DNA from: Sphagnum compactum
Lineage: Eukaryota
Direction: 5' to 3'
DNA: 64,000 nt
NCBI GenBank assembly: GCA_965153455.1
Contig: OZ234494.1
Location: 2,976,001-3,040,000, forward strand
In this document: in pieces, positions 3,151-60,900 of the stretch
Layout: the number at the start of each line of letters is the position of its first letter
How positions within the stretch are numbered: the stretch's first letter is position 1
The notes under the pieces: model-generated
The model's database searches: none
Told to the model about the DNA's origin: nothing
What the model saw: only the letters and a program-made list of their open reading frames with translations
Position numbers and translations under genes: made by a program

Positions 3151-6100
3151 AAAACAAGAACTTGGAACCACAATGGGGGCAAGATTGATGGGCCTCTTTG
3201 TCGCACACCCATGGCGTACATTGCTCCTTCTATCACCCCTTGCTTTGTCCTTGTTAATTAAAAAAGAGTTGATCTCATGCAACTTTAAGTTATTTTTTTA
3301 TGATGTCATTGTTGTTGTTGTTTTTTGCATTTTCTATTTTGCCATCCAAACTTCTACATTGGGCTTGTTTCCAACAAACTCCAGGATGTGAACAAGTTGC
3401 AAACGCCAAATCCTCTTGTGATTGATCACCATACATGGTCTATTGCATGTGTGGCAACTCAAGTGCAATGACAAATGTGAATTAGATGATTCTTCTTCTT
3501 CTTCTTTTTCTTCTTCGTTACAATGTTTAAAAGCATGTGTTTTTGCAACTCTTAAAGGTTTCACATAACTGTTGTTGTTGTTGCATGATTATCCAAAGTA
3601 ATTGTTGTTACATTTAGGTAATATAACGACCATGACGGTGGTGGTAACAAGGAATTGGAACGAGGTGGGTTTAATTGATTAGGAGGAAACCGACTCACAA
3701 CAATAAACCATTCAGCCATAACCACACGGTGCATGTTTGGTGGAGACTTCGAGTTCACATCATCCAAAGGAAGAGAAGAATGCATGTGATGTGGCTACCC
3801 CATTGCAACAACAATGAAATCTTATGGACCTTGGTTTGTTCAAAGGTGATGCCTCTATTGTTGTTTTCGCATGAATTGCCAGCACTTTTGTCATATCAAA
3901 ATACACAAGCATGAACAAGTCAGAGCCTTTAGTTGTTTATTTTGTTTGTCATGTTAAGATCCCTCAAACCATGATGAGTCTTGTTGCACTCCTTGTCATT
4001 GGAAAGTCTTCTTGAATTCCCACCCAAAAAATAAAAGACAAAAGACTGTTTTGTTTTATTAAAAAAAATTTGAAGTATGTTGGTTCTTGGTTACAAGGTA
4101 GTCTCGATTCTAAGGTAGGTTAAGGTAATTTCTTGATTAGGTTCCAAAACCAAAATCATCACTAGAAACATTGAAACAAGGTAAATTTTTTATTCCAAAA
4201 AAAGTCCAAGAGGAACACAAAGAAGAGGAGGATGACAACAAGCACAAACCAAAAGAAAAAGATGAAGAAGAGAACAATGGTAATAGCCGTGCACCAAGAA
4301 AATACCACGAAAAGAAAAATGATGACACCAACCACGAACCAAAAAAAAAACACAAAGAGGAAGGTGACAATAGTAATGTGAATCAAGAGAAAAACATGAA
4401 AAGGAGGACGATGGCAATATGTTTAAGCATGAAACCGTAACCAAAATATTTTTCAACCAATTGCTTTAATTTCAATTAATAATTCCATTTAAGAACTGGG
4501 CTTGGGTCTTGTTACCCATTCCCTCACATTCTAGAATCAAGTGGCTAATTTTTCATTTAATTTTCAAATTTTACCCTAACCTTGAATTAACCGATTTAGG
4601 TTCTAAACGAATTTCAAAGTTTGGGTACCCAATCAACTTGGGTACTCGAACAACAATGGAATCCTTCACCATGCCTTGACACTATCTCCCACCTATTTAT
4701 GGGCTTTTGTTGCACTAAAACCCCCAAAAAGACACACACACATAAGTTAGAAAGAAAACCACATACATCCTTAAGAAAAATTTTAAATGAAATACAAAGC
4801 AAACACAAAGGTGCCTTTTGAACCCTAACACCCATATTAAATTTTCATTTTTAATCTTCATACAATCAAAAGGAATAAACATATCAAGTTGGAAAAAGAA
4901 GAAAATGCACAAAAGATTTTCTTGAAACCCTAAATCTTATTTAGTAGCACTAACATTTAAAAGTTCATACAGTCTAAATGCATGCATACATATTATTCCT
5001 TTGAATACCATTCATTTCATAAAATCATATGGATTTATTTTGTTGGCAATTTTGACTTTTTATAGTGCACAATTTATTTTCAATGCCCAATTAGTAAAAA
5101 CCCAAAACTAGGTGGGAGATTATGTTGAGGCCAATCAAAGCTCTTCTCCCCTTCTTTTATTTTATCTTATATGAAAATTATGATTATGTTGGTTATGGCA
5201 TCCAAAAATTTTAGAATAGTAAAATGGCATGTACACAATACTTTGGTAGAAATGCAACGTGTAAATAATGACACATATCTCTAGGTTTGTTCATTTGTAT
5301 AAGGGGTAATTGATTTTGTCAATTCCCAAGTTTGTAACAAAATGCAAATCTAAAGCACATTCCTTAGTTCTTGAGAATAAACAAAGGTGAAAGTTTCATG
5401 ATGCAATTAAGATGAATTCACAAGTGTAAATTCAAGGTGAAATCAACTTGCACAAACCAAGAAAAAAATTGGTTCGTGTAAATTGGAGTCAAAATGATGC
5501 AAAGACAAATCACAAACCATAGACAAACCAAATTCACAAGACACAGTAAGGCTTAAACTTTGAAAAGAGCTACCACTTCTTTTTGTATAAGATATTTTAT
5601 GATTAGTGGCAAGGGTTACATCAAAGTGATAGAGATTTTTAGGAATGTGTGGATAATCTTGAAAATTATTGATTTTGCCCAAATTATAAGTTTCACAATT
5701 TTGTGAGTTGATAATTCCCACATCAAAACTCCAATTGAAGAACTTTAAAAAGAAAAGTTATAACCTTTGAAAAGACCTTTTCAACATTTGATTCATGTTT
5801 CCTTGATTTTCATGATCAAAAGTCAAGTTGTCAATTTAATTTTCAACCTTTTTTTCATTCACAACTCGTAACTCACAACTCCAAATGGAAAATGCAAGCC
5901 CACTTTTGATATTTATGCTTCAAGACCTTCCCAATGGTATATTAGGGGCCCAATTTGCACCAACTTTACTACTTTACATTTTTGTTTCAAAAATTTGAAA
6001 TTTTGTTGAACTTTTACTTCCAAAGTCGAGACTCATTTTCTCACATTTGTGAAAGTGTGCTTGAATTCACACTCTCACAAACCATTTCCAGTTTCATGCC

Positions 6101-7444
6101 TTAAATTTGGTCACATGCCCAAAACTATGGTCGCAAGCCTAAAGCTATGGTTGCAGGCCCAAACCTGTGGTCACAACAAATTTAAAATTGTAAAATTTAT
6201 GCCTCTATCATTATGTGTAGGGTAAAACCAAAAGCCATGGGCGTTATTGCAATCAGACTTCACATAATCATTGATTTTGCTCAAACTAAAAGTCATGACA
6301 CCTTTATTTTAATAAATTGTATGATTGGTAAAGCTTGAGGTCACATGTTTTAATAAGCTTAAATATTTATTTTAATTTATTTCTTTATTTGAATAATTTT
6401 TAAAAAATTGGAACATACCATTTTTGTTTTGTTAGACCCCTTTTAAACAATGGGGAAAAAAATACTTTGGGTAACATGCTCTTCAATTACACTTGAAAAA
6501 ATTGGCATAAGGTTTTACATATATATGGTAATGAACATTTTTAGGTTTGTTTTGGGTTTGAGGGCTTGATTGAAAGTGACAACCCAAAGTGGGAAATGAA
6601 AATAAACAAGAGCCAAACATGTAAGGATAATTTCTGAGGCTTTTCATGGGTCTAAAGGCCCAACCATAGGCCCAACTAAAGGTAATAGCTTGAGGTTGGG
6701 AGTGAAAATTAAAAGAAAAATATAGGGCAAGGAACATTGTTGAGGTTTTTTTTGGGTTTGATGGTTCAATTACAAGCAATAACTTGAGGTTAATAATGAA
6801 AATCGAACAAAGATTGAACAAGGTAAAAAAACATTTTGGAATGTTTTTGAGGGTCTAAGGGTTGAATAGAAGTTTTTTACACAAACCAATATTTTCCTTT
6901 CCTTGCATCAGATTAGATCAAAAAAGATGATACACAATTTTTAAGACCATAATTTTCATGGAATCAATGAGAAGATTTGACATGTAGTTAAGAGACATTT
7001 CCTTGGGGGGCGGGGGGGGGGGGGGGGTTGGCAAGGTGGGGAGGGATTTTTTTATTTATTTATTGGTTCCCAATATGTTATCATCAAGTTCCCAAGGTTT
7101 TCCCAACAACTTTTGAAAATGTTCCCCAATTTCATAATGTGTTCCCATTAGCATTTTTTATCCCATATGTTATGGCCAAAGTTGAATTTTCATGTATATA
7201 AGCTATAAAAGAGAGGCCAAAGGAATCACATCTTGTGTTCACACCTCTTGTGTTCTTACAACCCTACAAAACTTTATTTATAAAGACATTGAAGATTTGG
7301 AAAATGTATGAAATAATAAGAAAAAAAAGAAAGGAGAATTTACAAGACGTTGATTTAGTTCAAACTAAATGTCAAAACCTCTCCATGTCAAAAATTGACC
7401 TCTTATAATAGGTCAGTTGTATTTTTTGATCATATCAAAAATCA

Positions 7445-8972
7445 ACTGCCTACAATAGGTCGGCCATTGTGATGGGAGGTGTGTCTTAAAGGGGTGGAAG
7501 TCAAAAAGTAGTTAAGCCTATGGCAATTGCCCGATTTAAGATGGAGGATGCTTGCACTTTTTTGTAATGTAATTGAAAAATTTTGATGAAAGAAAAGTAA
7601 CCAAGACAAAAAAAAGAAAGGCCTTTTAGCCCTTTCAAGCTTCAAATGGCATTGGCACAATCATGTAAAAACACATTAACTTGTTTGTGTAGACATCCAA
7701 ACACCTCAATTGCTAAAGGGATGAATTGATTAGTGGGGTGTCAGTTACAATAATTCATTTTTTTGCTTGAGTTGCATCAAAGGCAATAATCTTTAAATTG
7801 CACAAAATTAGGGAAGTAAATCTGCTCATGTTGAATTAACAATGATAACATTGGTTAGGGTGCAAATGCCATTTTTGGTGATCATAATGTTGATTTGTTA
7901 ATGAAAGGAATTGAACATGGTTGAAAGAACCACATTTAATTGTCTTCGTCCCACGTGAAAGTTAACATTTCACGCAATGGCACCAAGGGTGTCGTGAATT
8001 GCATCATGGGTTCCCATGCGCTCCTTGCCATGATCACAACATAAAAGGTGGATACCCATAGGGTCAATGGGGTGTGTGCATGTGCATCGAAAGATAACTG
8101 CAATTGAAGGATGGGGTAGTCCAAGTTGGGTTTGAAGTGTTGTGGAAAAAATTGAAGAAGATAATCAAAAGGCTAAAAATATTATTCAAATTATAAACCA
8201 ATCGTCCACCCTTGGGCCAGAACATGATAAAATTCAAACACGATGGGCCTTAAAAATATCTTGTCAAAAAAAATGTTAGAAAATGTATGATGATGTAAAT
8301 GTTTCAAGATGGATCTTGAAGTCGAACCATTTGTTGCTGGATGAGTTATTCAAATGGAGGAAAACATGCCCAAGTTGGAGGCGATAAAAGATCACATGTT
8401 GCTTTGAAGTGCTACTGAAAAGGGAAAATGTTGTTATTGATTAACACTAAGGCCTCAAAAAGCAAGGGACATTGATCAACCATAAACCTAGCAACTATGA
8501 TTAAAACTACAAGGACCTAATTCCCTAAATAGGTTGTTAGGGCAATGGTGGCTATCACACATGAGCCCAATGCCACCAAAAGTTATTGGTAGAAAGGTTT
8601 GTTTACGAGCCAAAGGTCCTTCCAAGCTATTAAAAGATCATGGACCTAATAGATGCCCAAATATTTGAAGGAATGAGAAATCAACAGTAATAATGGATTT
8701 TGTGAAATTAGAGGAAGGAAGTGTGCATCATAAGAGATATGATGGTTATTGCACGAAATAATGAATTAAAATTCTAAAAGTTATTTGAACATCACCCATT
8801 TTAAAGAGAAGATTTACATGTTAAACATCTTCTGACAAGACATCTTTGATGAAGGGTGATGTGAATGATGGGGTGCCCAATGGAACCCCCAATACTTTAA
8901 TTCCTTCTAATGGGGTGGTAAATTGGGATGGGGTGTTGAAATCAAGTGGCAAGCCGAAGGGTGACCATGTTA
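7445..8972 (-). mobile_element. Degenerate CRE-like LINE, copy 2, 3' part (RT end, thumb, CCHC knuckle, RLE endonuclease)
   Basis: Minus strand: GIKVLGVPLG (~8875-8905), LPITFGGIGL (~8563-8592), CTCTHPIDPMGIHLLCC...HDAIHD (~7990-8090), TLTNVIIVNST (~7830-7860) and FIPLAIEVFGCLH (~7687-7725). Many in-frame stops. Confidence 0.75.
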
Positions 8973-9281: not shown

Positions 9282-9294
9282 TTATCCTCTCCTC
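9282..9294 (-). promoter_or_regulatory. Polypurine tract (GAGGAGAGGATAA)
   Basis: Purine run directly abutting the 3' LTR on the minus strand. Confidence 0.8.
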
Positions 9295-12200
9295 AAGCGA
9301 CATCTTCTAGATGGAGCCGGTTTGTTAGGATATCGTTGGTGAAACCGATTAACTAAGTCTTGGGCATGAACTAGGTTTCCAGCAGGCTCCCAAGTAGCTT
9401 CAGAAGGAGGATAACCTCGCCAAAAGACAAGGTACAGGAGCTTTCCACGAATCTTCTTGGAGTCCAAGACCTCCTGAACTTCAAACTCTTCTTGGCCTTC
9501 AATTTCGACTGGAGCTGGGGGTTCTTGATGACGTTCTGGGATCGGGTTTTCATGATAGGGCTCAAGCAGGGAGACATGGAAAACATTGTGGATTTTGAAC
9601 TGGGGTGGAAGCTCCAACTGGCAAGCCACTAGACCAACCAATTTGGCGATTTTGAAAGGTCCGAGGCGCTTGTAATCCAACTTGGCACATGGGCGAGTGG
9701 TAGCAATGTTCTTTATGAGAAGCCAGACCTTGTCTCCAACCTTGAAGTTTGGATGGTCCTTGCGTCGGCGGTCTGCTTGCTTCTTTTGCCACTCCTGTGT
9801 TAGCTTGAGTTCTGCCATAAGGTTCTGTTGAACCTGTCCAAGCCTCGTGGCCCTTTCTTCAGCCGAGGGGTTTACGGAGTCTCCAGGAATTTCAAGGCTG
9901 AACCTGGGATGAAAACCGTAATTGGCAAAGAATGGACTGATCCCGGTCGATGCATGTGTTGTGTTATTATAAGCAAACTCTGCTTGAGATAGTAGGTCCA
10001 GCCAGTCGTCCTGTTGGTAGTTCACAGTGCAGCGAAGGTATTGCTCGAGTGTCTGGTTTGTCCGTTCGGTTTGTCCATCTGTCTCAGGGTGGAAAGCTGA
10101 AGATAGCCGAATGTCAACTCCAAGAAGCTCGAATAGACGATGCCAGAACTTGGATGCAAACTGAGGACCTCTGTCGGACACAATTTCCTCGGGGAGTCCA
10201 TGCAGTCGGACGATCCCGTCCAGAATTAACTGAGCTGTCTCTTCTGCCGTGATTGACTTGGAACAAGGGGTGAAATGGGCCATTTTGGTGAGTCGATCGA
10301 CCACAACCAGTATTGAATTCTTGGTTCTGACAGTAGGGAGGTCCGTGATGAAGTCCATTGCAATAGATCCCCAAGGTTGGCTAGGAATCGACAGAGGTTG
10401 TAGGAGTCCAAACGGGCGATGCCTGGGAGCCTTGGATCGAGCACATGTATCACAAGACTTGACATACTCCCGTAGCATCTTGTTCATTTTGGGCCACCAG
10501 TAAGTCCTTGACACTAGTTCGTGAGTCCGTGCCATTCCAAAGTGACCTGCCAGGGTGTTGTCGTGGCATTCCCTCAGGATTTTTAGGCGTATAGGTCCTT
10601 CGGGTACATAAATCAGGTTATTTCGAAGGAGAAGTCCGTCTTGCTGCTCAAATTGATCCAAGTCATCACGATTTGGGTTCCTTGGTCGTTCCTGGAGTTC
10701 CTTCTTGATGTTGGTAGCCCAGGTGTCTTCCTCAGTTGCTATCTTGATGTCCCTAACAAGGTATGAGTCTGGGAGGGTGCTGATTGTTGCTGCAACTCGA
10801 AATTGCTTGGGGTTGAGTAAAGTCTGGTTTTGCTGGCCGTAGGCCTCATCCCCCGCTCGAAGTTCATATTTTGAACGACGAGATAGCGCGTCAGCTTTCC
10901 CTTGCTGGGTGCCGGGTTGATACTGAATCTCAAAGTCGAAATCAGCTAGGAAGATAGACCAACGTGCCTGGTGACGATTTAAGGTCCGAGTAGTTGTGAA
11001 ATAAAGGAGATTCTTGTGATCTGTCAGAACTTGGACTCGATGTTGAGCTCCGGCAAGATACGGTCTCCACTGCTCGAATGCCGTGATGATTGCCAGGAGT
11101 TCCTTATCGTAGACCTGGTAGTTGATTTTGGCACTGGTTAACTTCCGTGAATAGAAAGCAACTGGATGCAGCAACCCATCTATTCCAAATTGAGATAGAA
11201 TAGCTCCCAAGGCAAAATCTGAAGCGTCCGTTTCCACAATGAATGGCTTGGCAGGATCGGGATGTATCAGGATGGGTGCAGAGGTGAATGCCATCTTGAG
11301 AGTATCAAAAGCAGCCTGGGCCGTTGGATTCCACGAGAAGGGCTTGTCTTTGCAAGTCAGGGTTATTAACGGTGTTGTGATCTTGGAGTAGCCTTTGATA
11401 AACCGACGATAGAAGTTGGCAAACCCTAGGAAGCGTTGAACGTCCTTGACCGAGGATGGAGTAGCCCAACACTGGATGGTCTCGACCTTTGACTTGTCCA
11501 TGAAAATGCCATCTGGAGAGATCACGTAGCCGAGGAACGCCACTGAAGATTTGTCGAATTCACATTTTTCCAACTTGGCGTATAAGCCATGCTCCCGCAG
11601 CGTCGCAAGCACCAATCGTACATGTTTGTCGTGGGTTTCCTGGTCCTTGGAAAAGATTAAAATGTCATCCAAATAGACCACGACAAATTCGTCCATGTAA
11701 TCCCGGAAGATATCATTCATCAGATGCTGAAAGACTGCGGGTGCATTGGTGAGGCCGAAGGGCATGACCGTGTATTCGAAGTGGCCATAGCGTGTGCGGA
11801 AAGCTGTCTTCCATTCATCACCAGGGCGAATCCTGAGTAAGTTGTAAGCTCCACGGAGGTCAAGCTTGGTGAAGATCTTCCCGGTACGTAGTCGATCTAG
11901 GAGACCTGAAATCAAGGGCAAAGGATATCGATTCTTTTTGGTTATCTTGTTGAGTCCACGATAATCCACACAAAGTCGAAGGGAGCCATCCTTCTTCTTG
12001 ACAAACAAAATTGGGGCACCGGCTGGAGACTTGGAATGCTGAATGAACCCCTTGGCAAGATTTTCAGTAAGGTAATCACGCAGGGCTTGGAGTTCCGGTT
12101 CCGATAGGCCATAGATAGGACCAAAGGGTGGTGAGTGTCCTTCTTCTAGATCAATCGGGCAGTCATATGGACTATGGGCGGGGAGCTGATCAGCATTAAT

Positions 12201-13040
12201 CTTTTCAAAAACATCAACAAAGTCCTTGTACTTCTTGGGAAGTTTGACAGGTGTTGGTTCCGATTGGGGGTTTGTGGTGTTGGCTGGGTTGACATGGATG
12301 GCGAAGACTTGAAGATTCTTAGCAGCCCGATAGAAAGGGACAGCTCTATCAACGAAGATCTGGACAGGGTTGGTTTTCTGGGCAGAATTCTTGACAAGAT
12401 TCTTGACAGGACAAGGTTTCGTTCTGACCAATCGGGGGTTCTTGACTGCAGGATTTGACATAACAGACTTGATAAAACTGGAATTGGTTCCGACCCTCTT
12501 TGGGTTCTCGACCACAGGGTTCTTGGCAGGACTGGACAAAGTGTTTTTCTGAGCGTGGGGTTCTTGAGAGGTGCATCGTTGTGCGCTGAAGGTGAGGGTT
12601 CTAGATCGCCAATCAATGATAGGGTTGTGTGCTTCTAGCCAAGGCAGACCAAGGATGATGGGATGGTGAGGGGTGGAAATGATGTTGAGAACAATCTTCT
12701 CTGTGTGCTTGCCGATACAGAGTTCTAGAGGGGTTGTCTTGTGTGTGATTGCACCAGAAGCAATGGTTCTCCCATCAATAACCTCTACCGGAACAGGGGT
12801 TGACTTCTTGACCACAGGGATGTTGTGTTGGATGACAAATGTTTGGTCGATGAAAGAAGAGGTGGCGCCGGAGTCCACCAAAGCTGACACTTGTGGTATG
12901 TCTTCTGGAATACGAATGATGTCCACATACTGAGTGAAACTGGGACTGGGACCAACAGCGGAACAGGAGCCTTTGCAAAGGTGGTGTTGGGTGAGATCCA
13001 GTCGCACGGCTTCTACTATGACTGGATGTTCTTGTTTTCC
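9282..13040 (-). CDS. pol: Pol polyprotein (aspartic protease, reverse transcriptase, RNase H, integrase, chromodomain), probably expressed by a -1 frameshift from gag
   Basis: Uninterrupted ORF 9282-13136 with [40 protein letters not shown], HHCC motif (CHD..AGH..CDTC), [18 protein letters not shown], GPF, and the chromodomain [34 protein letters not shown]. Confidence 0.95.
   Translation of the reverse strand, partial: [1252 protein letters not shown]
12963..13040 (-). promoter_or_regulatory. Putative -1 programmed ribosomal frameshift signal (G GAA AAC + 6-nt spacer + stem/pseudoknot)
   Basis: pol is in the -1 frame of gag. Heptamer at 13034-13040, 8-bp stem ATCCAGTC/GACTGGAT (13020-13027 with 12996-13003), and a possible second stem between the loop and GGCTCCTGT (12963-12971). 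Confidence 0.65.
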
Positions 13041-13987
13041 AACTCCTGGGGAGTTTCCACAGCTTGTACCTGAAGTTTGACAAGCTTTTGAGGGCATTGA
13101 CGAGCTATATGCCCTGGGTTGCCACAATAAAGACATAGATTGTTTGTCCTTCGGCGAAGTTTCTCGGCTTCTGTCAAAGATTTAAACTTAGCTGTGTCGA
13201 TCTGCATCGGAGCAGGTCCAAAAGAGGCAGGTCGGGCAACTGGTGTTGTTTGGGGAACTAAGGGGAGCGTAATAGGCCGACTGTTCCAAAGCTGGGCGTT
13301 GGAGGTGACTTTCTTTTCCTGGCAACGTTCGAACAGACGATTATCGCATCGAATTGCCTGGGTGATGGCTTCACTGAAGGAAGAAGGGTCTGCGAGTGTC
13401 AACAAAAGATCTTGAACATCATCACGAAGCCCACAGCGAAACTGATCAATCAAGGCAGCTTCTCCCCAATTGACGTCACAGGCAAGCTGCCTGAATTCTG
13501 AAGCGTAGACGATGGCCGAACGTGTCCCTTGCTGGAGGCAACGCAGCTTGTTGGCTGAAGTCCTGACCTTATCACTGTCCCCAAATACTGCTTCAAATTC
13601 CGCCATAAAGGCGTTGAAATCTTGTAGAAGAGGGGATGATGTTTCCAGGATGGGAGCAAACCATGCTGCAGCTGTCCCAGTGAGTAGGGTTCCAACGAAT
13701 CCTACACGAGTGGTGTCATCAAAATAACGACGGGGGTGTAGTTGCATGATCAGGCGTACCTGGCTGACAAAGCCTCGAAATTTGAGGCGCGTTCCATCAA
13801 ACTTTTCTGGCAGACTGATCTTGGGTTCTTGGGCGGCCATTGCAAGAGCAGGAAGTACTGGGGCAGGAGGTGGTGGCTGATTCTGTAGGCGGGTCACCGA
13901 GTCTCTAAGCACGGCATTTTCTTGTTGAAGGTGTTGAAGGGCGGCAAAGATTTGAGTGAGATCGATGTTGGATTCTGAGTTGTCCAT
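13016..13987 (-). CDS. gag: Gag (retrotransposon capsid with CCHC zinc knuckle)
   Basis: ORF from ATG at 13987 (MDNSESN...). Contains PKISLPEKFDG, LQQGTRSAIVYASEFRQLA and CLYCGNPGHIARQC. Confidence 0.93.
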   Translation of the reverse strand: MDNSESNIDLTQIFAALQHLQQENAVLRDSVTRLQNQPPPPAPVLPALAMAAQEPKISLPEKFDGTRLKFRGFVSQVRLIMQLHPRRYFDDTTRVGFVGTLLTGTAAAWFAPILETSSPLLQDFNAFMAEFEAVFGDSDKVRTSANKLRCLQQGTRSAIVYASEFRQLACDVNWGEAALIDQFRCGLRDDVQDLLLTLADPSSFSEAITQAIRCDNRLFERCQEKKVTSNAQLWNSRPITLPLVPQTTPVARPASFGPAPMQIDTAKFKSLTEAEKLRRRTNNLCLYCGNPGHIARQCPQKLVKLQVQAVETPQELENKNIQS

Positions 13988-14025
13988 GGTGGTAGTTCTC
14001 ACACTTTTGCGCTTTCAATCTTCAA

Positions 14026-22792: not shown

Positions 22793-25704
22793 TCATTGTG
22801 GCTGTCTCTCTGCCATTGTTTTTGCCTCTGTTTTTGGTTGGAATGCTTTGAACATGCTCCCAGAGACAACAGACTCTGGTGGATTGGGCATACCAAGAGC
22901 ATTCCACACAGAGCTTTGTGCTGCTTCTTTGGGATCACCTACTCTCAAACTCTTTGGAGCCCAGAGAGCCCCATCAACTCGCCTACCTTCAGGTCGATCT
23001 CTTGGGTGCTTACCTAACACAGGAGTTGTTGTACCAGGCAGTCTACTGACAGGCAACACACTGCCATTTACTGTTGAGGCAGCAGCTGGAGCACCAGCAA
23101 CTGCTGCTGCCCATGGCAGGGGCACAGTCCAACCTCCCCAACCTGGAGGAACAACCCAATGAGACCCAGGCATCCCTGGTAGGAGAGATGCCCATGGAAG
23201 AACTCCAGCTCCAGTCCAAATACCATTGGGAGGTGCGTTCCAGGTTGCCATTCCATTCCCTGATAGTAGCTGTCCAGTTCCAACAACCCCATGGCTTCCA
23301 GCAGGCACTGTCCCACTCCACCCAACATTAAATCCATAAGGCCAAGCCCCATTGTAGAAGCTAAAGGGACCTCCTGTGCCACCAGCAGCCAAAACACCAG
23401 CATCACCCACTGCCATTGGCCTGTACAAACCCCCAACATCAGGTTGGAGAATAGGATGTAAGGGTATGGGGACTGCAGTATTAGCAGCTTCCTGGGTGGT
23501 GGTCGAATCTTGTTCTGGTAGAGAACTGGCACACTCATCAACTTCTTCCTTCTTTTCTACTTCAGATGGTAGCTCACCAGCACCATTTACACCATTTTGT
23601 GATCCATTCATAGCAGTAATTTGGTGGACTTCACCTGCTACTTGAAAGCCTTCCATCATGCTGATCTCACCACCTGCTTCCAAACAAGAGAATGTACTGT
23701 TTAGTCTTCAATGATAGTAATTGGAAAGTCCATTGGAACCAAGGTTTTAGTGTCAAACAACCAACCATTGATAACAGTTTACAGAAAGAAGACAATAGAA
23801 CATCAGATATCAACAAACACCAACTTTGTGACATGCATCCCATTCAAAATGAGACCAATCACATGGTTTAACTATTTGCTCCAAGACTCCAGTGCCTTTT
23901 AAGTAGGACAGGGCACACAAATCAATGTCCCTGCTTGCAAATAAAGGACACCTGATCCAGAGTGCATACTGCTAAGGTGAAGATCAACAATAGCACCATT
24001 CTTAACAAACTATGGTTTTAAAGGGCTAATTCATTTTGCATGACACTGACCTGAGGCATCATGAGCATCTTTGCAGGGATACAGCTGTGGAGGAACTGTC
24101 CCTGATGCATGCCTTGAAAAAACTGCACCATCAGGAGGGCCATGGTCTTGACGGATTGATGTAATTGTACTACTACCAGAACTAGCATCAAGAGCTGGGA
24201 GGGCAGGACATTGGCGAGGGATCTGAGGATGCTTCAAGGGGGAGATTCTTGACCCAGCGCAGGGGAGTAGCTGCTGTACACTCTCCTGGGAATCAGCTTC
24301 AACCGTAGCAACAACTGACCGATCAGCCATTGCGCCATTCCGAGCCTGCAATCCGACATGTTTGTTCTTCCTGCGACCTGCTCCAACAGGAACATTTCTT
24401 AGTGTGCCTCCAGCAGTCCAGTACCTCTGGCAGTTCTTGCAAAAGTGGCGAGGCTGATTTATGTTGTAGTTGTTGTAGTAGCAAAACTTTGTATCCAGGC
24501 TCTCACACCGAGGACAAGGGGCTGGCTTATCTGGCTTCTTTAGATTTTTCCCTTGGGACCCAACTTCTTGACCTCCTTCTTCTGCCTCCTTGTGTTCATT
24601 ACTTCTCCCCTGGCTGTCCTCAGCTGTTGCAACAGCTACTGAATTGGTCCCTGTGGCTGTCACAGTCAAGTCAGTCTCCTGTTTGCCAGACTTCAATGAC
24701 TTCTCGTCCTCTGCTGCCTCTGCAGGTTCATTGCTACCTAAGGAGCTCCCAAGCTCATCCACAGGTCCCGTTCCCATTGCTTTACAATTATCCTCTGTCC
24801 ATTGCACAGTTTCTTCTCCTACCTCCTCTGCATCCCCTTCCTCCTGTGCATGCCTACCTTCCTGCACAAAGCACAATACCAACAGAGTCTTCTTCTTTGA
24901 GAAAAAAATTCCCTCTCTTTTCTCTGATGTTTCAGATATACCAACAGAGTCTTCTTCTTTGAGATAAAATTTCAATCTGTTTTTTCATGATGTTTTTTAG
25001 CTATTCCACAGACATTCTTCTGTGGAGTCCATGACAAGATACTCGGAAAGAGTCTGAAAGAGGAACTCATGTGACGGTAACCTAACCTAGAAACCTTCAA
25101 CAGCAGTTGATACTTTCAGAGGAAGGATCCGGTGATCTTAGACATCGATAATAATAGTTACTGAAGAAATCAGCAAACGATTTGATTTGCTTGAACAAGC
25201 ACAGATCAGCGACGCGGCATGTTGTCGATAGAAGAAGAGGAAGAAGACGACAGCCTTCTGTAAAGACGACATGCGGAAAATGTATACACATGAAGGAAGG
25301 AAGAAGTCCTACACAACGACGACCTTTGTAACTGCCTTTGCTATGTGGCTTCCAAGTGCGTTTACAAAATCAGACTCCTACTGGAAACAAGTCCGGACAT
25401 GTATTCCCTATCGCATTTCGGTAAACAAACAACGGAACTGCGAAGCAGGAAGCCGTAGATAGAGTGAAGAGGAGAGGAGGGAGGAAAACAGGCAACCAAC
25501 CTCAGTGCACGGGGGAGCGCCTTTCTGCAGCGGGCAGTTAGGATCGTCCGTGATCACTTCGCCGGTATCGGCATCGACAACAGCACCGCCTGCAGTTACT
25601 GGAATGGTTCTACCGAAAAGCTTGATGGCGGGGTCTGCAGTCACAGGGGGACTTGCCGCTTGTTCTTCCTCCTCCTTCATCAGCCACTTTCTAAGCTTGG
25701 ACAT
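22793..25704 (-). CDS. Dof zinc-finger transcription factor, CDF (cycling Dof)-like. Exons 25704-25501, 24861-24051, 23673-22793 (~631 aa)
   Basis: Dof domain [51 protein letters not shown]-terminal IKLFG, C-terminal [27 protein letters not shown] and MFKAFQ. Two phase-compatible GT-AG introns give a 1896-nt frame. The start could instead be the ATG at 25680. Confidence 0.9.
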
Positions 25705-51481: not shown

Positions 51482-51990
51482 GGATCCTCACTCCCCCCTA
51501 CATTCTGAATTGATTGAGTGAAACACTATGGAAGCATTTCAAGTGTGGCCTTACTTGCATACAATTAAAGCTCTTACAAGTCAACCCATTTTGCTCAAAT
51601 TTTTTTTTCTTTAGTCTCCCAGCACCATATCATCATCATCATCAGCATCATCACTTTCACATTTGTTTTGTGCATTCATATTCCAAATCAAAGTTTTGTT
51701 GCTGGAATGCACACTTTTTTTTTTGGATGTGTAAGTGATCATGTATGGAGTCTTAAGAACCTAGATTAGATCAAAACTGCCCTCTGGATTTTGTTTTATT
51801 TATGACCATTTGTTTTTTCGTTGCTGATTGATTGCCTTGATGATGGTGATGATGATGATGGAGAGGAGCTTAATTTTGTTGTCAAATTAAGCTAGAGGGG
51901 TTTTGTTTGTGCTTTTACTCTGTTGTTGTTGTTGTTGTTGTTGTGAATGAGAGTTTTTTAGTTTTGTGCTTTTGCTTGTGGTGGGTCACA

Positions 51991-52766
51991 ATGGGAAGTG
52001 TATTGTCACAGGAAGAGATAACAACAAACATCAGTACAAAAATCATGGATAGGAGAGCAATGGTGGCAGCGGCGGCGGCGGCGGCGGCGGCAGCAGCAGC
52101 AGAGGAGCAGGAGGAGAAATGGTTGAATAGTGAAACAATAGCAATCATGTTGCTTTTGAACTGGGCAGCCATGGCAGTGGATGACTTAGATGAGAATGAG
52201 AAATGGATCAGCTTGGTCAGCTCCATTGATGAGCCACAGCTTGATGTGCTTCTGCAGATGCCTTGGACACCAGAAGTCCTGGACCATTTCTTCCAATGGT
52301 TTGTCAACCACAAGCTGTTAAATGGAAATATTGATACATGTAGTAGCATTTATCATCCAATTCCTGAAATTTCGGTGGGGAGCTCTCAGATCCTGGCAGT
52401 TGATCATGCTGCTGAGAGTCCACCACCAATTCCAGGAATGGGTTGGAGCTCTCAGATCCTGGCAGTTGATTGTGCTGCTGGGAGTCCACCACCAATTCTG
52501 GGATTGGGTAGGAGCTCTCAGATCCCAGTTACACTTGATCCTGAGTCTAGTGCACCACCATCCCTAGTGGAGAGCTCTCAGATCCCAGAACTTCATCCTG
52601 AGTCTAGTGCACCCACACCACCACCACCACCACCAGGCTTGACAAATTTGGTTCAACATGAGAATGTTGTTGCAGGTGGAGATCAAGAGTCGTGGCCTTA
52701 CCAGAGTTTTTTCAATGTGGCTAGTGTTGGGTATGAAGATCATGATCAGTCTTCACATCTGCTACA

Positions 52767-52802
<36 letters not shown>

Positions 52803-54207
52803 TTGTGGAGGAGGAGGAGGAGGAGTCGAACAATCAAGGATGCTTGCTGATGAGCAGGTTTCGACTGCACATCAGAGCTTCTGGCTCCATGACCCATCAT
52901 CTGCCAATGTTGATAGTGGAGCTGCTGATGACATGTTCCTGTCTAATCTGCTGAAGGAAGCTCTGGGTGATCAAGACTTGCTGCAAGAAGAGCCCACACC
53001 AAATTTGCTGCCATGGATGATTGTTGATGACAAGGAGGTGCCATTGAAAGGGAAACAACAATGCAGTACTACTGCTGCTCGCAAGACAGGAGTTGTTGGT
53101 GCAGGAGCTCCTCTGAAGCAGCAGCAGGTGGCAGCATATAGTTCACAACCAGCGGGGCAGCAACAGCAACAGCCTGGGCACTACAGAGGGGTGAGACCCA
53201 GGCCATGGGGCAAATTTGCAGCTGAGATTCGTGACTCAACAAGGCAGGGTGGGCGTCAGTGGCTGGGGACTTTTGATACTGCACTGGAGGCAGCACTAGC
53301 TTATGACAATGCTGCTCTCAGATTGCGTGGCTCTCGTGCCCTCTTGAACTTCCCTGTCAGAGCTGCAGCAATAGTGAATGAGTTGCTAGCTCCACCAGAA
53401 GCACTTGCTGATGATTGTCTTCCTGATGTTGATCCCAAGCCTCCTGCTGCTGGTGCTGCCCAAGAGCAGGATCCACCCCAGCTGGGATCAGCCTCAGCTC
53501 CCAGCAGCAGCTCAAACAAGCTCTTTCACGGCAAGAGAAAACCTCCAGCTAGATCAGATCTTCATGGTCATGAGCTCCAGGATCCATCACCAGACCCTGA
53601 TCACGTACAGAAGAAGTGCAAGCAAGCTCAAGTTCATGCAGTACCAGATCAGCAGGCATCTGTAAGACAAGTCCAGGGGAGCAACAAATCCAAAGTCTCA
53701 GAGCAAATTCAGCCCAGCCAATCAAAGTCAGGAACAACAACTATCGAGTCGAATACTGATCAGGACAGGCTGCTGCAGATGCAGCAAAAATTTCAGAACC
53801 GAAAACCCGGAATGGTAATTCAGAAACGCGATTCACAAGCTGAGGGAATCAAGAAAGTGAAGGAGTTGCAGATCAGATGCAAGAATTTTGCCTCTGAAAG
53901 CTCTCAATTACCTCATCGCCAAAATTTGAGTAGTAGTACTACATCTCAAGAAGATGACAGTGTTGTTGCGGATCATCATCCTCAGCAGCAGCTGCAACAG
54001 CCCTTGAAATCCAAGCTCCTCAGCCAGGATCAAGAGCAGCTGCATCATGCATCAAGCTCAAAGCCAGCTGCAGGCATGGTGATAAATCCATGGAACTGGT
54101 ATCCCTGGAATTGTTCACCAAGGTCCCCACTTTGGAATTGGTCCCCAAGGTCCCCACTTTGCCCATCACCCCCACTGTCAAGCCCACTATCACACTACTT
54201 GTTCTAG
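51991..54207 (+). CDS. AP2/ERF transcription factor (single AP2 domain, ERF subfamily), intronless, ~738 aa
   Basis: AP2 domain [59 protein letters not shown] at 53179-53355, with the ERF-type A and D residues. First ATG at 51991. Confidence 0.88.
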
Positions 54208-55133
54208 ATCGAGTTCCAAGTTGGGGTTCATTGCCCCACTTCTGTCGGGCCTCCAATTTCTGCTTGAGCAAGCTATTCTTTTATTATTTACTGAAATTCT
54301 TCAGCAATGACACAAACATGAATAGATAGATAGATACAAGCAATTTCCCAAGTTAACAGGATAGAATCAGACTGGGATATAGATCTAGTGGACAATTGAC
54401 AAGAGCAAGCAAGCATGGTCTGATACTTGGGTTTTGTGTTTGAAGCCTGGTTTGGAGTAAGAAGCTTAGAAAGTATGCAGTATTTTAAGACTGCTCCCTT
54501 TGCAATCATGCAATTTTTGTGCAACTGCAGTACCCTCTGCAATGATTTTACATTGTGGGGATTGCTTGCTTTGCCATTATTCTTTTTTGCAACTGCACTA
54601 TCCCCTGCAGTGATTTTGCATTGTGGGAATTGCTTGCTTTGCAATTAATTTTTCAGGAATGGTAGTAGTCTCAGCCCATTCCAATTCCTTTACTTCCAGA
54701 TTGAATATTGACACCTAGCTAGCTAACTGCAATTGCTCTTGCCATTGTTTTAGCTTCTTCAAGAGAGAGCCTGAAAATAAAAAGACTGTTGGATCATGTG
54801 GAATGCAATTTGTGTCAAATTCTCAGTTTTTGGCTTTCACTATTAAAACACAGCTGGGAGAAAGCTCAAACCAACTTCTTCCCAGAGTGCACTGGATGGA
54901 AACAGAGGTGACACTTAAGGATCACATCAATTGTAAGCTTTCCTGTGTTTTTCCTTCTGTGTCTACCTATTGCCTTCTTCTTCTCATGGTTTGTTTCCTG
55001 GAAATTGTTGACCTGATATCTTCAGAAGCAAATCGAAAGATTGGACACATTCTATGCAAGACATGGTACCTCAACATTGTGGCTTCTATGTGATCAATCT
55101 ACATGATTTGAAAGCAAAGTTCTTTCTGCAGTC

Positions 55134-55615
55134 CCTGCAGATCACAGAGAGAAACCATGGCAGGAGTTCTTTTTGAATCCTTCACAATGGTGGGATCACA
55201 GATCAGAGAAGGTAACTGGACATCAAACCTGTCAGAGTTCACATGTCAGTGGAGCCATAGCAGCTGTTGTTGGTGTCAATCTTGTTGCCCTCCCTCTCTT
55301 GGTTCCTACTTGGTCCAAACTTGGCAGAAATTTTTTTGAGGTCCTTTGCACTGGTGGGATGATTGTAGTAGGCTGGAGAAGGTAGGTAAATGCAATATGT
55401 TGATGGAAACGATCATTGCAGCTTTCTCTGTTTCTTATGATGCCATCTATCCCTGGGATGTGGGAAATACATGACTGATCAGCTTGATCTGGATATCTGG
55501 TTGTAGACAAATGAAAGGTACAACCCGTATTTCAAACATAAGAAGACACAAAAATCACTTTGGCTTGGGGACTGATGAAACTTGCCATGGTTGGCAGCAG
55601 AGATGGCTGCAATGG
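55134..55615 (+). pseudogene. OSB-type PDF ssDNA-binding motif, split by an intron (exon to 55211, intron 55212-55506, exon from 55507), with stops
   Basis: Spliced translation PADHREKPWQEFFLNPSQWWDHRSEK|TNERYNPYFKHKKTQKSLWLGD**NLPWLAAEMAAMA matches the W..FF.NP..WWD.R..K...PDFKHK.T..ALWL....PW pattern. The intron is GT-AG and phase 0. Confidence 0.75.
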
Positions 55616-56294
55616 CACTAGCATTTAGGCATTAGCAGTTTAAGTGGAGACCAACTCTGGTAAGATTGTACGTTGCTGCTACAACGACTGCAAGGATTTT
55701 TAAGTATGTTGTACAATATTAGGTCGCTTGTGGAATTGCCAAGTATATTTTGTCTCAATTCTCTACTGTTGGATGAAGAGATAGTGTGCTATCCTTAGTT
55801 TACTTCGCAGACCACAAGAGGAGTGGTTTTGTGTTTTTCACTGCTCTCTATGTAGGCCTCCCTATGCAGATTTTGAAGTCCAGGTTGGGGACAACCAATT
55901 TTTCCCACCTTTGCTAAGGAGGAAACAATTGGAGTGGCATAATCTTGTAAACAAACCAAGTCTGCAATCCACTATGTGATAATACCTCTTGTTGCTTGCA
56001 TTGGTGAATTGTCATGTCAGGATTGAGAAAATAGTGGCTCTGACATGTTTCTTGAAGATCCTTGGTGAATGACAAGGAAGTGAATAGGAGATAGTAACTG
56101 TGAGATACCTGGTAAAGACACCTTGCTCAATTGAAGCTTTGGTGAGCTCCCATCATTGTTTTGGCAAACTTATATGTCTGGAACTGTCAGGTTTAAGTGT
56201 CAGGTCAGTTATGGCTCAGCACATTTTCTTCAAGCGGGTGTGTGGCAAGTGAGGTAGGATGGGGGGACCACAATTGCCTACAGATGTGAGACTG

Positions 56295-57990
56295 CTGGTT
56301 TAGGAGCACTTGAAGAAGATGGCAGGCTTGTTCATGAACAGCTCATTCAAACTGAGTGCGACTCTGATGTTGTTGTGGGGAATAGCTTGGTTGATATGTA
56401 TGCAAAATGTGGGAGCTGTGATGATGCTTTGAAGGTGTTCAACAATATGCCGTCTCAAGATATGGTCACTTGAAACACCTTGACAATGGGAGATGAAATG
56501 GGCAAGGGCAGAAGGCACTGGAATTATTTCAGAAAATGCAACAGGAAGGTGTGCAGCCAGAGACTCTGTGGCGGTGCTGAATGCATGTGCTATTGCAGGT
56601 GCCCTTGAGAGTGTTCACGATAAGATCATTGAAAGTGGTTGCGAGTTTGATGTCTTTGTGGGGAGTAGCTTGGTTGACATTTATGCAAAGTGTGGGAGCA
56701 TGGAGGATGCTTGGAGAATGTTCAACAGGATGCCATCTTGGAATGTAGTCACCTTTACTGCTATGATATCGGGACATGTGAAATGTGGCCAAGGGCAGAA
56801 GGCCCTGGAACTATTTTGACAAATGCAAGAGGAGAATGTGCAACCAAACTCTGTTACTTTAATGGGGTTGCTAAATACATGTGCCAGCATGGTCGCACTT
56901 GAAGAGGGCTTCAAGTGGTGTGCTCATGAGCAGATCATTCACAGGGGCTTGGAGTCAGATGTTTTTGTGGGGGAGTAGTTTGGTTGACATGCATGCACAG
57001 TGTGGGAGCATGGAGGATGCTTGGAGTGAGTATTCTAGCGGTGGCTCTGCAATGTCAAACACATTGCACAAGGACAGGGGTCAAGCATCCTCAAATCATG
57101 GTCTAGCATCGTCGTAAAGGCAATTGAACAATTCCTTTTGTCAACAAGCACGAAATGACAAAAATGTCATTAATACAGAGGTGTAGATCTGAACCTTCAT
57201 TCTTCTCTCACTAAAGACTAGCCTTCTAGCTGCTTCAAACACTTGGGGAGAGAAAGATAGCTCTTCGTCTCCTTGTGTCCCTGGGCTCTTCCTGTGGCCA
57301 TTCTGCCAGACAGCAATAGATCAATGTATGGTTTGTAAGGCTTCCAATGAGCTATCTGTCAGAAGTGAGGAGGATGCTTGGAAAGTCTTCAACAAGATGC
57401 AATCTCATGATGTCGTCTTTTGGATCACCGTGGTATTGGGACATGTGAAATGCAGGCAAGGGCAGAAGGCACCGGAAATATTTTGACAAATGCAACAAGA
57501 AGAAGGTCTGCAGCTGCCAGACTATGTTGTTTTATGCGGGGGTGCTATAAATGCATGTTGCTAGTGTAGTTGCACTTGAAGGAGGGCAGGAGTGTGTATG
57601 AGTAGATCATTCAAATTGGTTGCAAGTTTGATGTTCCAATATCACGGTGATCCAAAAGACGACATCATGAGATTGCATCTTGTTGAAGACTTTCCAAGCA
57701 TCAATGCAGGCAAGGGCAGAAGGCACCGGAAATATTTTGACAAATGCAACAAGAAGAAGAAGGTCTCTGCAGCTGCCAGACTATGTTGTTTTATGCGGGG
57801 GTGCTATAAATGCATGTTGCTAGTGTAGTTGCACTTGAAGGAGGGCAGGAGTGTGTATGAGTAGATCATTCAAATTGGTTGCAAGTTTGATGTTCTGTCG
57901 GGAAGAGAGCTTGGGCCATGACATGTAATGCAAAAATGTGGGAGCATGCAGGATGCTTGGAGAGAGAGAGAGTGTTCAACAAGATTGTCA
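56295..57990 (+). pseudogene. PLS-class pentatricopeptide repeat pseudogene
   Basis: Repeated motifs such as VFVGSSLVDIYAKCGSMEDAWRMFNRMPSWNVVTFTAMISGHVKCGQGQKALELF*QMQEENVQPNSVT, with multiple stops, frameshifts, insertions and duplications. Confidence 0.9.
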
Positions 57991-60900
57991 GTTGTAGAAC
58001 ATGAACTAAAACCCTAATTCCTAGTGTTTGTTGTCTTACATGATATTTTTGCCAGGAACAGTCTTTTGTGCACAATCACTACTACAAAATGTACAAAATG
58101 TGGGTGCAGTTCACTAGTCCCCGTTCACTAGACTAATGAATTTACTGCTTCTTCACTGGTCCTTGTTCACTACAACCAGTGGATTCACTCAAAATCCAAT
58201 GAAATCACTTGGCGTACATGGACACCTTTTGTTGTAGTGAATGAACATGTTTTTCCCTTTTGACAACCATATCAACAATTCTGGCGATAAATTTTGGGTG
58301 ATAAATTGAGGTGAAAGTTTTGGTGTATAAAATTTTGGTGAACTTGGTGATTTTTGGTGATTTTTGTGGATGATACATAAGTCTATGTGGTTTTATGTGC
58401 CAATGGTAATTTTTGAATTTGTGGACAAGATGTTGAGGATTAATTGAACCCAATCTTATTGAATGTTTTTTGGTCATATTTCAGCTCAAAATCCCAAAAC
58501 CATAAACTCGTATATATTTCCATTTAAATATTACATGATCATCTCCCTCTATTTAAAATTCCTTGACACCAATCAGAAGTTTTCCATCCATTATGATAAA
58601 TAAACCTTTGCAAGTCTTGTAACTAAAATACTTGTTTGGCATATTGGCCCTCGTGTACTTTTTTACACTGGATTCACACCAAGGTGGTGGTAAAAGGGAG
58701 TAACCTAAAGGAATAAAAAACTAACCCTAATGCTATCCCATTCACACAAAAGGGGGGTTACCTATATATATGGCAAATGACATGCCCATTGGGGTTAAGT
58801 GGGGGATGATGAGTGTGTTGGGGGGTATCTTTTTAACCCCAGGAATAAATATCTTCATTTTTTTCTAGATTTTGGGATCAAGTTAGGGTGAAATTTAGGA
58901 GGTTAGTTTGATTTCAAAGGGTTAAGTTAAAAAATGCACACTTTGGTGATAATTTGCCAAACTATGAAAGCCATTTAGGATTGATTTGATGTGGTCAGCT
59001 TCAGCCTGACCTCTAGTGTGACTTTATGAAGTGGTGGTACTAAGGAATTGAATGAGAAGAGAAAGGAATTCTTTTGAAAAGATTTACAAGGAGATTTGTT
59101 AGAGTTATCGGGTAAAGTCACCCTCTCTTCACCGTCTTTGGGCCTGCTTTCACCCCCTATCCATAATATCCGTAAAATAATAAGGAAATTTTATTAAATC
59201 TCAGCACTTACGAAATGCTAAAAAACTCTGCATTTAAAAAGGTTTGAGAGTAGTAGTGATAGTAGTTGTACAGGTAGGAGTAGTGGAAAATATTATGTAG
59301 CAGCAGTGGGGGTGCTCTGGAAAAAGGAAAGACAGGATGAAACTCAGTTTGCCACCAAAACCAAAATAGGTGGAAAAACTAGTTTGAGTACCAGTTATTT
59401 TGCTTTGTGAACTTTTTCATTCCCAGTTACACGTTTGATTCCCTATTGTGCCACCAAAACTGGTCGTTCTCACCCCCTAATCACACGACTTTATGGGATA
59501 ATTCTAATATCCAAATGCAGTTTAGTGAATGTAAGTATAACTATTTAAATGACTGCAAAGACATAGCATGCCCACTTTAAGGGAGTAGGCATAGCATCCC
59601 TCCTAGGAGGGATATCCATGGATATTAGGTGCCTTCCACATACAGTAAAGGAAATTTAGGGGAGTGCTTTTTAGGTTAGGAGGGGGTCTAATGTGGTTGT
59701 TTTTTGACCCACTCCTTCCTTGGCCTAGATGGTCTCCATGTGATATAGGTGAACTACTTACTACAAGTCTAAATGTTGTACATGTTTTTAAGCTTTTACT
59801 TGGTCTTTTTCATAACACAGGTGGACACACTTATTATTCTAATTAAATAGAGTAATAATGTTTACATTATTGAGAAAATGAGGAAAAAGATTCAATACTA
59901 AGAGCAACTCTTGAAGCAATGAATGCATTGTATTTGAGGCACTACTTAGTTTGTGATAATATCGATATTTATCACATCCAAATTTAGTATTAAAATTTGT
60001 GTGTTCCTTCCCAACCCACAAAGAGTAAACGTCGGGATAACATCAATCTATGAAGGAAAGATTGTTTGTTTTTGTTTTGTTTTGTAGTTATGAGATCCAT
60101 GGAACTGGGATGGGATGCTTCAGGTCTTCTTGTTCTTGGTGTCTTTGGAAAGCTCTTGACGAAGAGGGGGTGCATGCATGGACTTAGTTCCATGACGTTT
60201 GGACTTGCCATGGCAAAAGTTCTTGCATATTGAATGATTTTTTTTCATTGAAAATTGAATTAAATCGTAGCTGAAGTTTTTGGGGGAATCGGAATGTGCC
60301 TTTGGTGTTGTCGGAAAGATCTTGATGAGCATGATTTTATGGAAATTATTTGGTGAAGAAAGCCCATGCCAGTTTACTCATGTTCTAAGAGAGCTTAAAA
60401 TTGTGTGAAAAGCTTGGGTCAAATAGACACGCCAAGCTTGACTAAGTTTAAAGGTCTGGGGAGGGAGTGTTTATTGTAGGCTTGGTCACAAAGTGGTATC
60501 ATATAGGTAGCTACGTAAAGTCCCCTTTTTCTAGTGGGAAAAAAAAAATTGGTAGAAAGGGTGCTTGCTTGACACATGCACAAAAGTCATTGCCAATAAT
60601 TTGCCTAGAGACTTTTTTTTTGATTATGAGAGAGTGCATTTTGCACGGCCCCGGGATGGATGTAGGGCAAATGTGTAACTCTTTTGGATTATTGTGGCCC
60701 CAGTGAACAAGCACCCCACCAGCGTTACCATCCACTGGATGCCCGTTATTACTCTCACTTGTGGATGAACCTTAACTGAGTTAGTCTTTGGTTTCACCTT
60801 GGTAACCATGTCTGTAGGAAAATAGGTCTTGTACATAGGTAGATAGGTAGGAAAATAGGTAACTACTAAGTAAGTAAGTAAGTAGATGGTTTAAACATAG

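Follow-up and report, generated by a model that had tools for sequence, protein, structure and literature searches.

A pseudogene at 54874-57990 on the forward strand of a 64,000-nucleotide (64-kb) stretch of the Sphagnum compactum genome (contig OZ234494.1; "the window" below means this whole stretch, in which all positions are counted) very probably belongs to a large, expressed land-plant family of PLS-class pentatricopeptide repeat (PPR) proteins, in which an OSB-type PDF motif lies between a presequence-like N-terminus and the first PPR. To our knowledge, all earlier descriptions of the PDF motif concern organellar OSB proteins, and the motif is treated as a hallmark of these genome-stability proteins. 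As far as the literature that we searched extends, the combined PDF-PPR domain architecture is undescribed, and the family that carries it is both large and expressed. The window locus itself is ordinary, a decayed copy that keeps the family layout of presequence, PDF motif and PPR array, with the motif split by a phase-0 intron after ...SEK.

The initial annotation of this region had proposed that the locus derives from chimeric proteins joining a PDF motif to PPRs, and our searches revealed that such proteins exist intact. When the relic PPR open reading frame (ORF) at 56484-56819 was searched against the longer proteins of a 5.8-billion-protein collection, there were 637 matches with E-values of 1e-3 or less, and the best 120 of these were taken as the homologs considered here. 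Most of them came from Sphagnum. The liverwort Calypogeia fissa and the lycophyte Diphasiastrum complanatum contributed five each and Ginkgo two; the named sources of the PDF-PPR family comprised seven Sphagnum species, C. fissa and D. complanatum. A hidden Markov model (HMM) of the PDF motif, built locally from the motifs, matched 63 of the 120 homologs, always near the N-terminus, with 39 full and 24 partial matches. The partial matches begin at HMM positions 19-41, in 23 of the 24 cases within the first 13 residues of the protein, and are gene models that begin at or after the exon boundary at intron 2 (23 of the 24 at the boundary itself). Among the 57 homologs without an HMM match, 26 begin in the tail of the motif (...MAPGTVQ...F.WN), within 80 residues. 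The profile search for the PDF motif and a PLS array, with or without the E and DYW parts, in single proteins was therefore positive among the best 120 of the 637 homologs, 63 of them having the motif and 26 more starting in its tail. In the public databases these proteins are named only "PPR", "DYW domain-containing" or "hypothetical".

We then considered a set of 40 full-motif proteins, consisting of the 39 above and P0147. Pfam recognized PPRs in all 40, the E motif in 28 and the DYW domain in 17, and 13 positions of the PDF motif were invariant throughout the set (E63, W66, F70, W76, D78, R80, P89, D90, F91, K94, W101, P108 and W110 in the numbering of the Sphagnum fallax protein P0076). 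The PDF motif was as conserved as the PPR array, the commonest residue having a mean frequency of 0.79 in the columns of the motif and 0.76 in those of the array, and far more so than the presequence (0.48). In members of the family the first PPR motif follows about 10 residues after the PDF motif, and the 25-110 residues preceding the PDF motif are poor in acidic residues and rich in Ser, Thr, Arg and Lys. A search of longer proteins with the exon of the first motif half (42 residues) yielded nothing, no candidate having three 5-residue words in common with it, and one with the PDF region of P0087, from Diphasiastrum, returned only P0087 itself and one paralog.

That the PDF exons and the PPR relic of the window belong together is best seen by comparison with genomic counterparts. 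Seven loci (L001-L007) were retrieved from metagenome contigs with the Sphagnum fragment P0139 as query; two of them, L001 and L002, consist of a presequence exon, a PDF mini-exon, a phase-0 intron and a long exon 3, open over 769 residues, that encodes the second half of the PDF motif, the PPR array and E motifs. Window positions 54874-55621 match L001 positions 5189-5941 (blastn, 74.7% identity over 772 nt) in a contiguous alignment that starts in the 3' part of exon 1, spans both introns and the mini-exon between them and takes in the second half of the PDF motif, and window positions 56293-57026 match L001 positions 6096-6839 (blastn, 79%). The donor T/GTAAGC (54932/54933 in the window) is common to both, and upstream of 54874, as far as about 54786, the likeness to L001 is weak (z 3.5). 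As the window aligns with L001 across both introns and once more within the PPR array, its PDF exons and its PPR relic descend from one gene; the PDF exons thus have their counterpart in the 5' end of a PDF-PPR gene and in no standalone OSB gene, and the coincidental adjacency against which the initial annotation had cautioned was not borne out. The single open exon of L001 also argues against mis-joined gene models as the source of the chimeric proteins, as do unspliced ORFs beginning within the second half of the PDF motif. The open frame of L001 exon 3 ends soon after entering the DYW region, at ...AGYVPYAA, and DYW-like text continues in another frame at 8179-8391; a shift of frame, an additional intron or truncation of the DYW domain could each explain this. 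In L004, L005 and L006 exon 3 is open for 445, 169 and 54 residues, respectively, and from these short open lengths we conclude that decayed copies are common in the PDF-PPR family.

The splicing of the window motif, which had been read as 55134-55211 joined to 55507 by a GT-AG intron in phase 0, proved to be as described. Exon 2 starts at 55132, after the AG at 55130-31, so that 55134 is its first full codon, and the translation of 55132-55211 ends in ...KPWQEFFLNPSQWWDHRSEK. A tblastn search of the window with intact PPR proteins matched residues 63-83 of P0076 to 55149-55211 (90% identity, 3e-8), and the residues of the PPR proteins adjacent to this exon 2 match continue at 55507/55510. The acceptor of intron 2, GGTTGTAG/ACA, is identical in the window, L001, L002, L004, L005 and L006. 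In the 64 kb there is one pair of PDF motif halves of this sort (n=1).

The RNA reads on the PDF exons derive from expressed paralogs. From the polyA RNA run X22, 599 reads aligned to the window, 468 of them only in part, and at diagnostic sites the reads carried a letter other than that of the window in every case: 21 of 21 at 55176, 11 of 11 at each of 55552, 55555, 55564 and 55568, and 32 of 32 at 55591. These letters restore residues of the family consensus (N>D, K>E, S>A, L>V, G>V and L>V). Nine X22 reads, and contigs in the metatranscriptomes X15 and X16, show the junction of 55211 with exon 3, 19 letters being replaced there to give TDERYPD, while 15 further reads run on from 55212 into ...ANPRYPDFKH. 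The two sorts of read mean that at least two paralogs are expressed and spliced at exactly the proposed sites, with the canonical P-D-F; among the X22 reads at the diagnostic sites there was no spliced transcript of the window copy. Joints between the PDF and PPR parts were also seen in metatranscriptome contigs, but as their sides were only 21-29 nt long we did not use them as evidence. The transcript check that the initial annotation proposed was thus positive for the joining of the two PDF halves at 55211, in reads of paralogs, and yielded nothing that we used for the joining of PDF and PPR exons.

The assignment of the motif to the OSB type rests on its matches in OSB proteins. A phmmer query with the second half of the window motif, its stops read as X, in an exhaustive search of 1.84 billion cluster representatives gave 24 matches with E-values of 1e-3 or less, namely 12 short fragments of Sphagnum-like genes and 12 long proteins. 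Nine of the 12 long proteins hold 2-5 PDF motifs of the type W..WWDNR..K....PDFKHK..G..LW; the matches included proteins named OSB3 by their sources, which agrees with the motif having been called OSB-type, as well as a Sanguina protein with five PDF motifs. A weak Pfam match to SSB was located N-terminal to the motifs in four of the ten long matches that were scanned. Three long matches (P0123, P0133 and P0143) lacked the hallmark residues and were set aside as probably repeat-driven or spurious. A protein of 1063 residues from Striga hermonthica (P0131), with a weak SSB match and three PDF motifs, bears the source name "Interactor of constitutive active ROPs 2" and is probably a fused or misnamed gene model.

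In OSB proteins the PDF motif comprises about 50 residues with a conserved Pro-Asp-Phe (PMC6963530, PMC13393729), and the PDF-PPR proteins share with them the same motif of about 50-60 residues, W..FF..P.QWWD.R..K....PDFKHK....LW.....P.WV. The two differ in their remaining parts: OSB proteins have an SSB-like OB-fold domain and one to five C-terminal PDF motifs, whereas the PDF-PPR proteins have no such domain and carry one N-terminal motif (two in P0069), followed by a PLS-PPR array with E/DYW. The absence of an SSB/OB-like domain, which had already been remarked on for the window, extends to its relatives. SSB was neither among the 13 Pfam families matched by P0076 nor among the 25 commonest families of the 40 full-motif members, which have 27 rarer families besides, and a phmmer comparison of the pre-PDF parts of four OSB3-type proteins with 121 PPR proteins gave no match with an E-value of 10 or less; upstream of the window motif there is only the presequence exon. 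No Pfam model matched either piece of the window PDF motif or the PDF region of the 40 full-motif proteins. In a weakly resolved tree of 60 motifs and 64 columns, the PPR-linked motifs of moss, liverwort and lycophyte formed one group (Shimodaira-Hasegawa-like approximate likelihood ratio test, 86), with one non-PPR row inside it, apart from the OSB3-type and algal motifs. This tree is compatible with a single old fusion, and is no proof of one.

An AlphaFold2 prediction for P0076 on the 40-sequence alignment had a mean predicted local distance difference test score (pLDDT) of 80, with 63-87 in the PDF region, and placed a helix at 56-71, short strands at 76-78 and 91-93 and a helix at 110-117 that leads straight into the PPR helices from 127. 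The model of the short protein P0139, with pLDDT of 86-96 over residues 81-145, has the same elements, and the PDF part is predicted with confidence to be folded. A sequence search of the PDB returned no match for P0136 and two chance-level rows for P0139 (E 0.07 and 0.6), and the ESM Atlas yielded no usable match to the PDF part of P0076. A complex prediction with two copies of the PDF motif scored 0.00, which counts neither way.

An RNA lies parallel to the PPR tract that binds it, its 5' side at the N-terminal repeats. A PDF motif placed at the N-terminal end of the tract would face the 5' side of the bound RNA, where it could add to RNA affinity or could hold the factor on single-stranded nucleoid DNA. 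By analogy with the OSB proteins, we put at slightly less than even the chance that the PDF motif of intact members acts as an accessory, sequence-unspecific binder of single-stranded nucleic acid, and we would give a similar, not quite even, chance to nucleic-acid binding in total, whether of RNA or of nucleoid DNA. A rather unlikely alternative, yet the one that fares best, is that the motif does not bind nucleic acid and instead, from the N-terminal end of the PPR solenoid, serves in protein contacts, capping or sorting. The predicted structure would suit this, as the motif is modeled as a small helix-strand-strand-helix unit followed directly by the first PPR helix, and no nucleic-acid-binding fold was matched; on the other side, the invariant W66, F70, W76, R80, F91, K94, W101 and W110 are common to the OSB motifs, which are reported binders of single-stranded DNA (ssDNA). 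Somewhat less likely still is the proposal that the motif tethers editing factors to nucleoid ssDNA, such as transcription bubbles or R-loops, so that editing would be co-transcriptional. It draws on the report that the PDF motif of OSB1 is sufficient for ssDNA binding (PMC6963530) and on the strong conservation of the motif in PPR proteins, but the evidence gathered here favors neither DNA nor RNA, and a motif that directly abuts the first PPR could as easily be an extension of the RNA-binding surface.

A wider generalization from nucleic-acid binding by the motif would be that most PLS/DYW editing-type PPR proteins of mosses, leafy liverworts and lycophytes are two-part binders, in which an OSB-derived PDF motif, gained once by early exon shuffling, anchors the protein to ssDNA or nascent RNA at organellar transcription complexes and so couples editing to transcription, or else that the PDF motif is a general single-strand binder, of RNA included; we regard this generalization as doubtful. 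If the PDF motif does also bind RNA, the view of OSB proteins would change.

In plant organellar RNA editing, PPR-DYW proteins both recognize the site and supply the catalysis, and they are being turned into programmable RNA editors. The conserved PDF motif, carried by apparently most of the closest Sphagnum PLS-PPR proteins and also present in a liverwort and a lycophyte, would be an unrecognized accessory domain of editing-type factors, and exon shuffling would then connect two organellar nucleic-acid-binding families that are specific to plants. The PDF-PPR members resemble PPR-E/DYW editing factors such as Physcomitrium PPR56 in having a P-L-S array, an E motif and a DYW deaminase domain, and differ from them by the extra conserved PDF module between presequence and first PPR; the window copy differs further in being broken and without E/DYW. 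Other domains, including RRM, SMR and NYN, are reported to have been added to PPR proteins (PMC9459714), and maize PPR4 with its N-terminal RRM, the PPR-SMR proteins and OTP51, with LAGLIDADG, likewise combine a PPR tract with a second nucleic-acid-related module; these are described as P-type proteins with other domains, in contrast to the PLS/DYW editing-type proteins with an OSB-type motif found here. In a keyword search of that overview of moss PPR proteins "PDF" did not occur and "OSB" did so only in an unrelated sense, and a term search of a 2026 survey of 182 OSB genes (PMC13393729) found no mention of PPR. A full-text literature search for the PDF motif together with pentatricopeptide found one review, in which PPR concerns only mitochondrial RNA polymerases, and searches with strings of the motif found nothing relevant. 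No description linking the PDF motif or domain to PPR, DYW or RNA editing was found in the open full-text literature; the earlier remark that the architecture is not known to have been functionally characterized agrees with the literature searched.

Several observations count against our interpretation of the family and its motif. Neither the motif nor its tail was present in the remaining 31 of the 120 homologs, though most of these start inside the PPR array and are uninformative rather than contrary, and the motif was absent from both listed Ginkgo proteins. The N-terminal regions match an organellar presequence in composition, and it is by composition that they would be called one. Fold searches with the PDF model found no solved structure that is convincingly like it or that points to nucleic-acid binding, the best Foldseek row being a WW domain (E 3.4, probability 0.06) and the best VIA-align Z being 2.7 among 48,161 chains. 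Moss DYW factors are reported to edit in E. coli when cloned without the N-terminus (PMC10482289); if these factors carry a PDF motif, it would be dispensable for catalysis. Finally, intron 2 is covered by reads, all 13 of which have G>A at 55385, and a 374-nt contig (X15 record 6) spans 55017-55394 without splicing, from which it follows that the window locus or a near-copy is transcribed unspliced.

This unspliced coverage, and a 3.2-kb contig (X18 record 15) that is unspliced from the upstream AP2/ERF ORF to 55112, could be taken to mean that the window locus is still in use, by encoding a short peptide with only the PDF motif, by acting as a regulatory RNA or by forming part of the 3' region of the AP2/ERF transcript. 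We consider this very unlikely: contigs in RNA libraries are no proof of transcription, all X22 reads at the diagnostic sites carry the letter of a paralog, and the window motif has lost its invariant Asp, with two stops after it. In place of P-D-F the window has N-P-Y-F, through one extra codon and a change of Asp to Tyr (TAC AAC CCG TAT TTC, versus TAC CCA GAT TTC in a transcribed paralog); the stops are in-frame TGA codons at 55573-55578, and Leu takes the place of the nearly invariant Val that follows P.W. The features of the window locus, and of L001 for comparison, are given in Table 1.

Table 1. Features of the PDF-PPR pseudogene in the window and of its genomic paralog L001 (positions of L001 are those of its own contig).
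Feature	Positions	Strand	Details and basis
Window, exon 1 (presequence exon), relic of 3' end	54874..54932	+	...TEVTLKDHIN + T, then donor GTAAGC at 54933
Window, intron 1 (GT...AG)	54933..55131	+	inside the contiguous DNA alignment with L001
Window, exon 2, 80-nt mini-exon, first half of PDF motif	55132..55211	+	PADHREKPWQEFFLNPSQWWDHRSEK; tblastn, splice signals
Window, intron 2 (GT-AG, phase 0), splits PDF motif	55212..55506	+	GT at 55212-13, AG at 55505-06
Window, decayed tandem duplicate of exon 2, within intron 2	55317..55384	+	WQKFF, stop, GPLHWWDDCSRLEK, then GTAGGT; 73% identity to 55153-55196
Window, start of exon 3, second half of PDF motif	55507..55617	+	TNERYNPYFKHKKTQKSLWLGD, two stops, NLPWLAAEMAAMA; translation, tblastn, phmmer
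Window, stretch without significant likeness to family	55618..56293	+	L001 blastn alignment breaks at 55621, resumes at 56293
Window, PLS-PPR relic of some 2.5 P-L-S units, carrying in-frame stops and changes of frame	56294..57039	+	Pfam, tblastn, blastn
Window, non-PPR sequence breaking up the array, 324 nt	57040..57363	+	no tblastn match; no blastn match to L001-L006
Window, rearranged PPR debris	57364..57990	+	repeat search; tblastn matches, both strands
L001, exon 1	5001-5247		presequence; donor T/GTAAGC at 5247/5248
L001, exon 2 (mini-exon)	5458-5540		...EKLWREFFMDPSQWWDHRSEK
L001, intron 2			289 nt, between exons 2 and 3
L001, exon 3	5830-8139		one 769-residue open frame: second half of PDF motif, PPR array, E motifs, start of DYW

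Downstream of the PDF motif the window copy is broken throughout. The motif had been placed on the same strand as the PLS-PPR repeats and about 0.7 kb 5' of them, and this is so, as the PPR likeness begins 0.68 kb downstream, at 56294. The spacing between the PDF motif and the PPR likeness is 671 nt in the window versus 154 nt in L001, which amounts to about 520 nt extra. The segment 55618-56145 is unique within the window and has no match in the metagenome loci L001-L007, and terminal repeats or a target-site duplication around it were looked for and not found. At 56146-56184 there is a weak hint of the first PPR (APIIVLANLYVWN; tblastn E ~1), and at the DNA level 56146-56292 is not significantly similar to the first PPR of L001. 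The relic at 56294-57039 gave tblastn matches of 62-74% identity in three different frames, with stops, and ORFs of the window matched Pfam PPR and PPR_2 (2e-14 for that at 56484-56819). The debris that follows includes an inverted duplication (57373-57459 and 57616-57702) and an exact 130-nt direct repeat (57507-57636 and 57766-57895), and the best tblastn alignment of 57364-57963 contains six stops. Homology stops at about 57990 in tblastn, and no E or DYW part was found after the PPR debris. Being interrupted by stops and frame changes, the window copy does not have the open reading frame of an editing factor; it makes no protein, and its description as a dead copy is supported by the stops, the frameshifts, the insertion and the missing E/DYW part.

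Although the PDF exons and the PPR relic lie about 0.68 kb apart, with no likeness to the family in between, and the region is rearranged, we find it barely credible that a fragment of a standalone OSB gene came by coincidence to lie beside an unrelated PPR pseudogene, given that the order, the strand and both introns match the single gene L001, that the exon of the first motif half is 90% identical to the PPR protein P0076, and that in place of an SSB/OB part (0 matches with the pre-PDF OSB3 parts) it is the presequence exon of the family that lies upstream.

The decayed duplicate of exon 2 within intron 2 is common to the window, to L001 (at ~5640-5710) and L002, in which it is more decayed, and to the fragment P0137; it may be a remnant of an ancestor with two PDF motifs, such as those of the Diphasiastrum protein P0069.

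An element of about 260 nt lies downstream of the relic at 59102-59360 and recurs at L001 4251-4508, L003 386-634 and L004 4333-4592; the window element is 73-77% identical to the sequence that, in the metagenome loci, precedes the intact PDF-PPR genes by about 0.5 kb, and may be a repeat or a conserved flank. Upstream of the pseudogene, the 777-codon open frame at 51874-54207 (+) encodes an AP2 domain (Pfam, 4e-11) and is an AP2/ERF gene. RNA contigs from related organisms extend about 900 nt beyond its stop, unspliced, across the exon 1 relic and intron 1. Between this ORF and the pseudogene a 68-nt unit occurs twice in tandem (54515-54650), the copies being 85% identical. Elsewhere in the window there is a Ty3/gypsy retrotransposon with a chromodomain at 9282-14014 (-), in which a 1299-codon open frame encodes protease, reverse transcriptase, RNase H and integrase and a gag frame lies at 13016-14014, and an open frame at 24031-24984 (-) with a Dof zinc-finger domain (Pfam, 3e-33).

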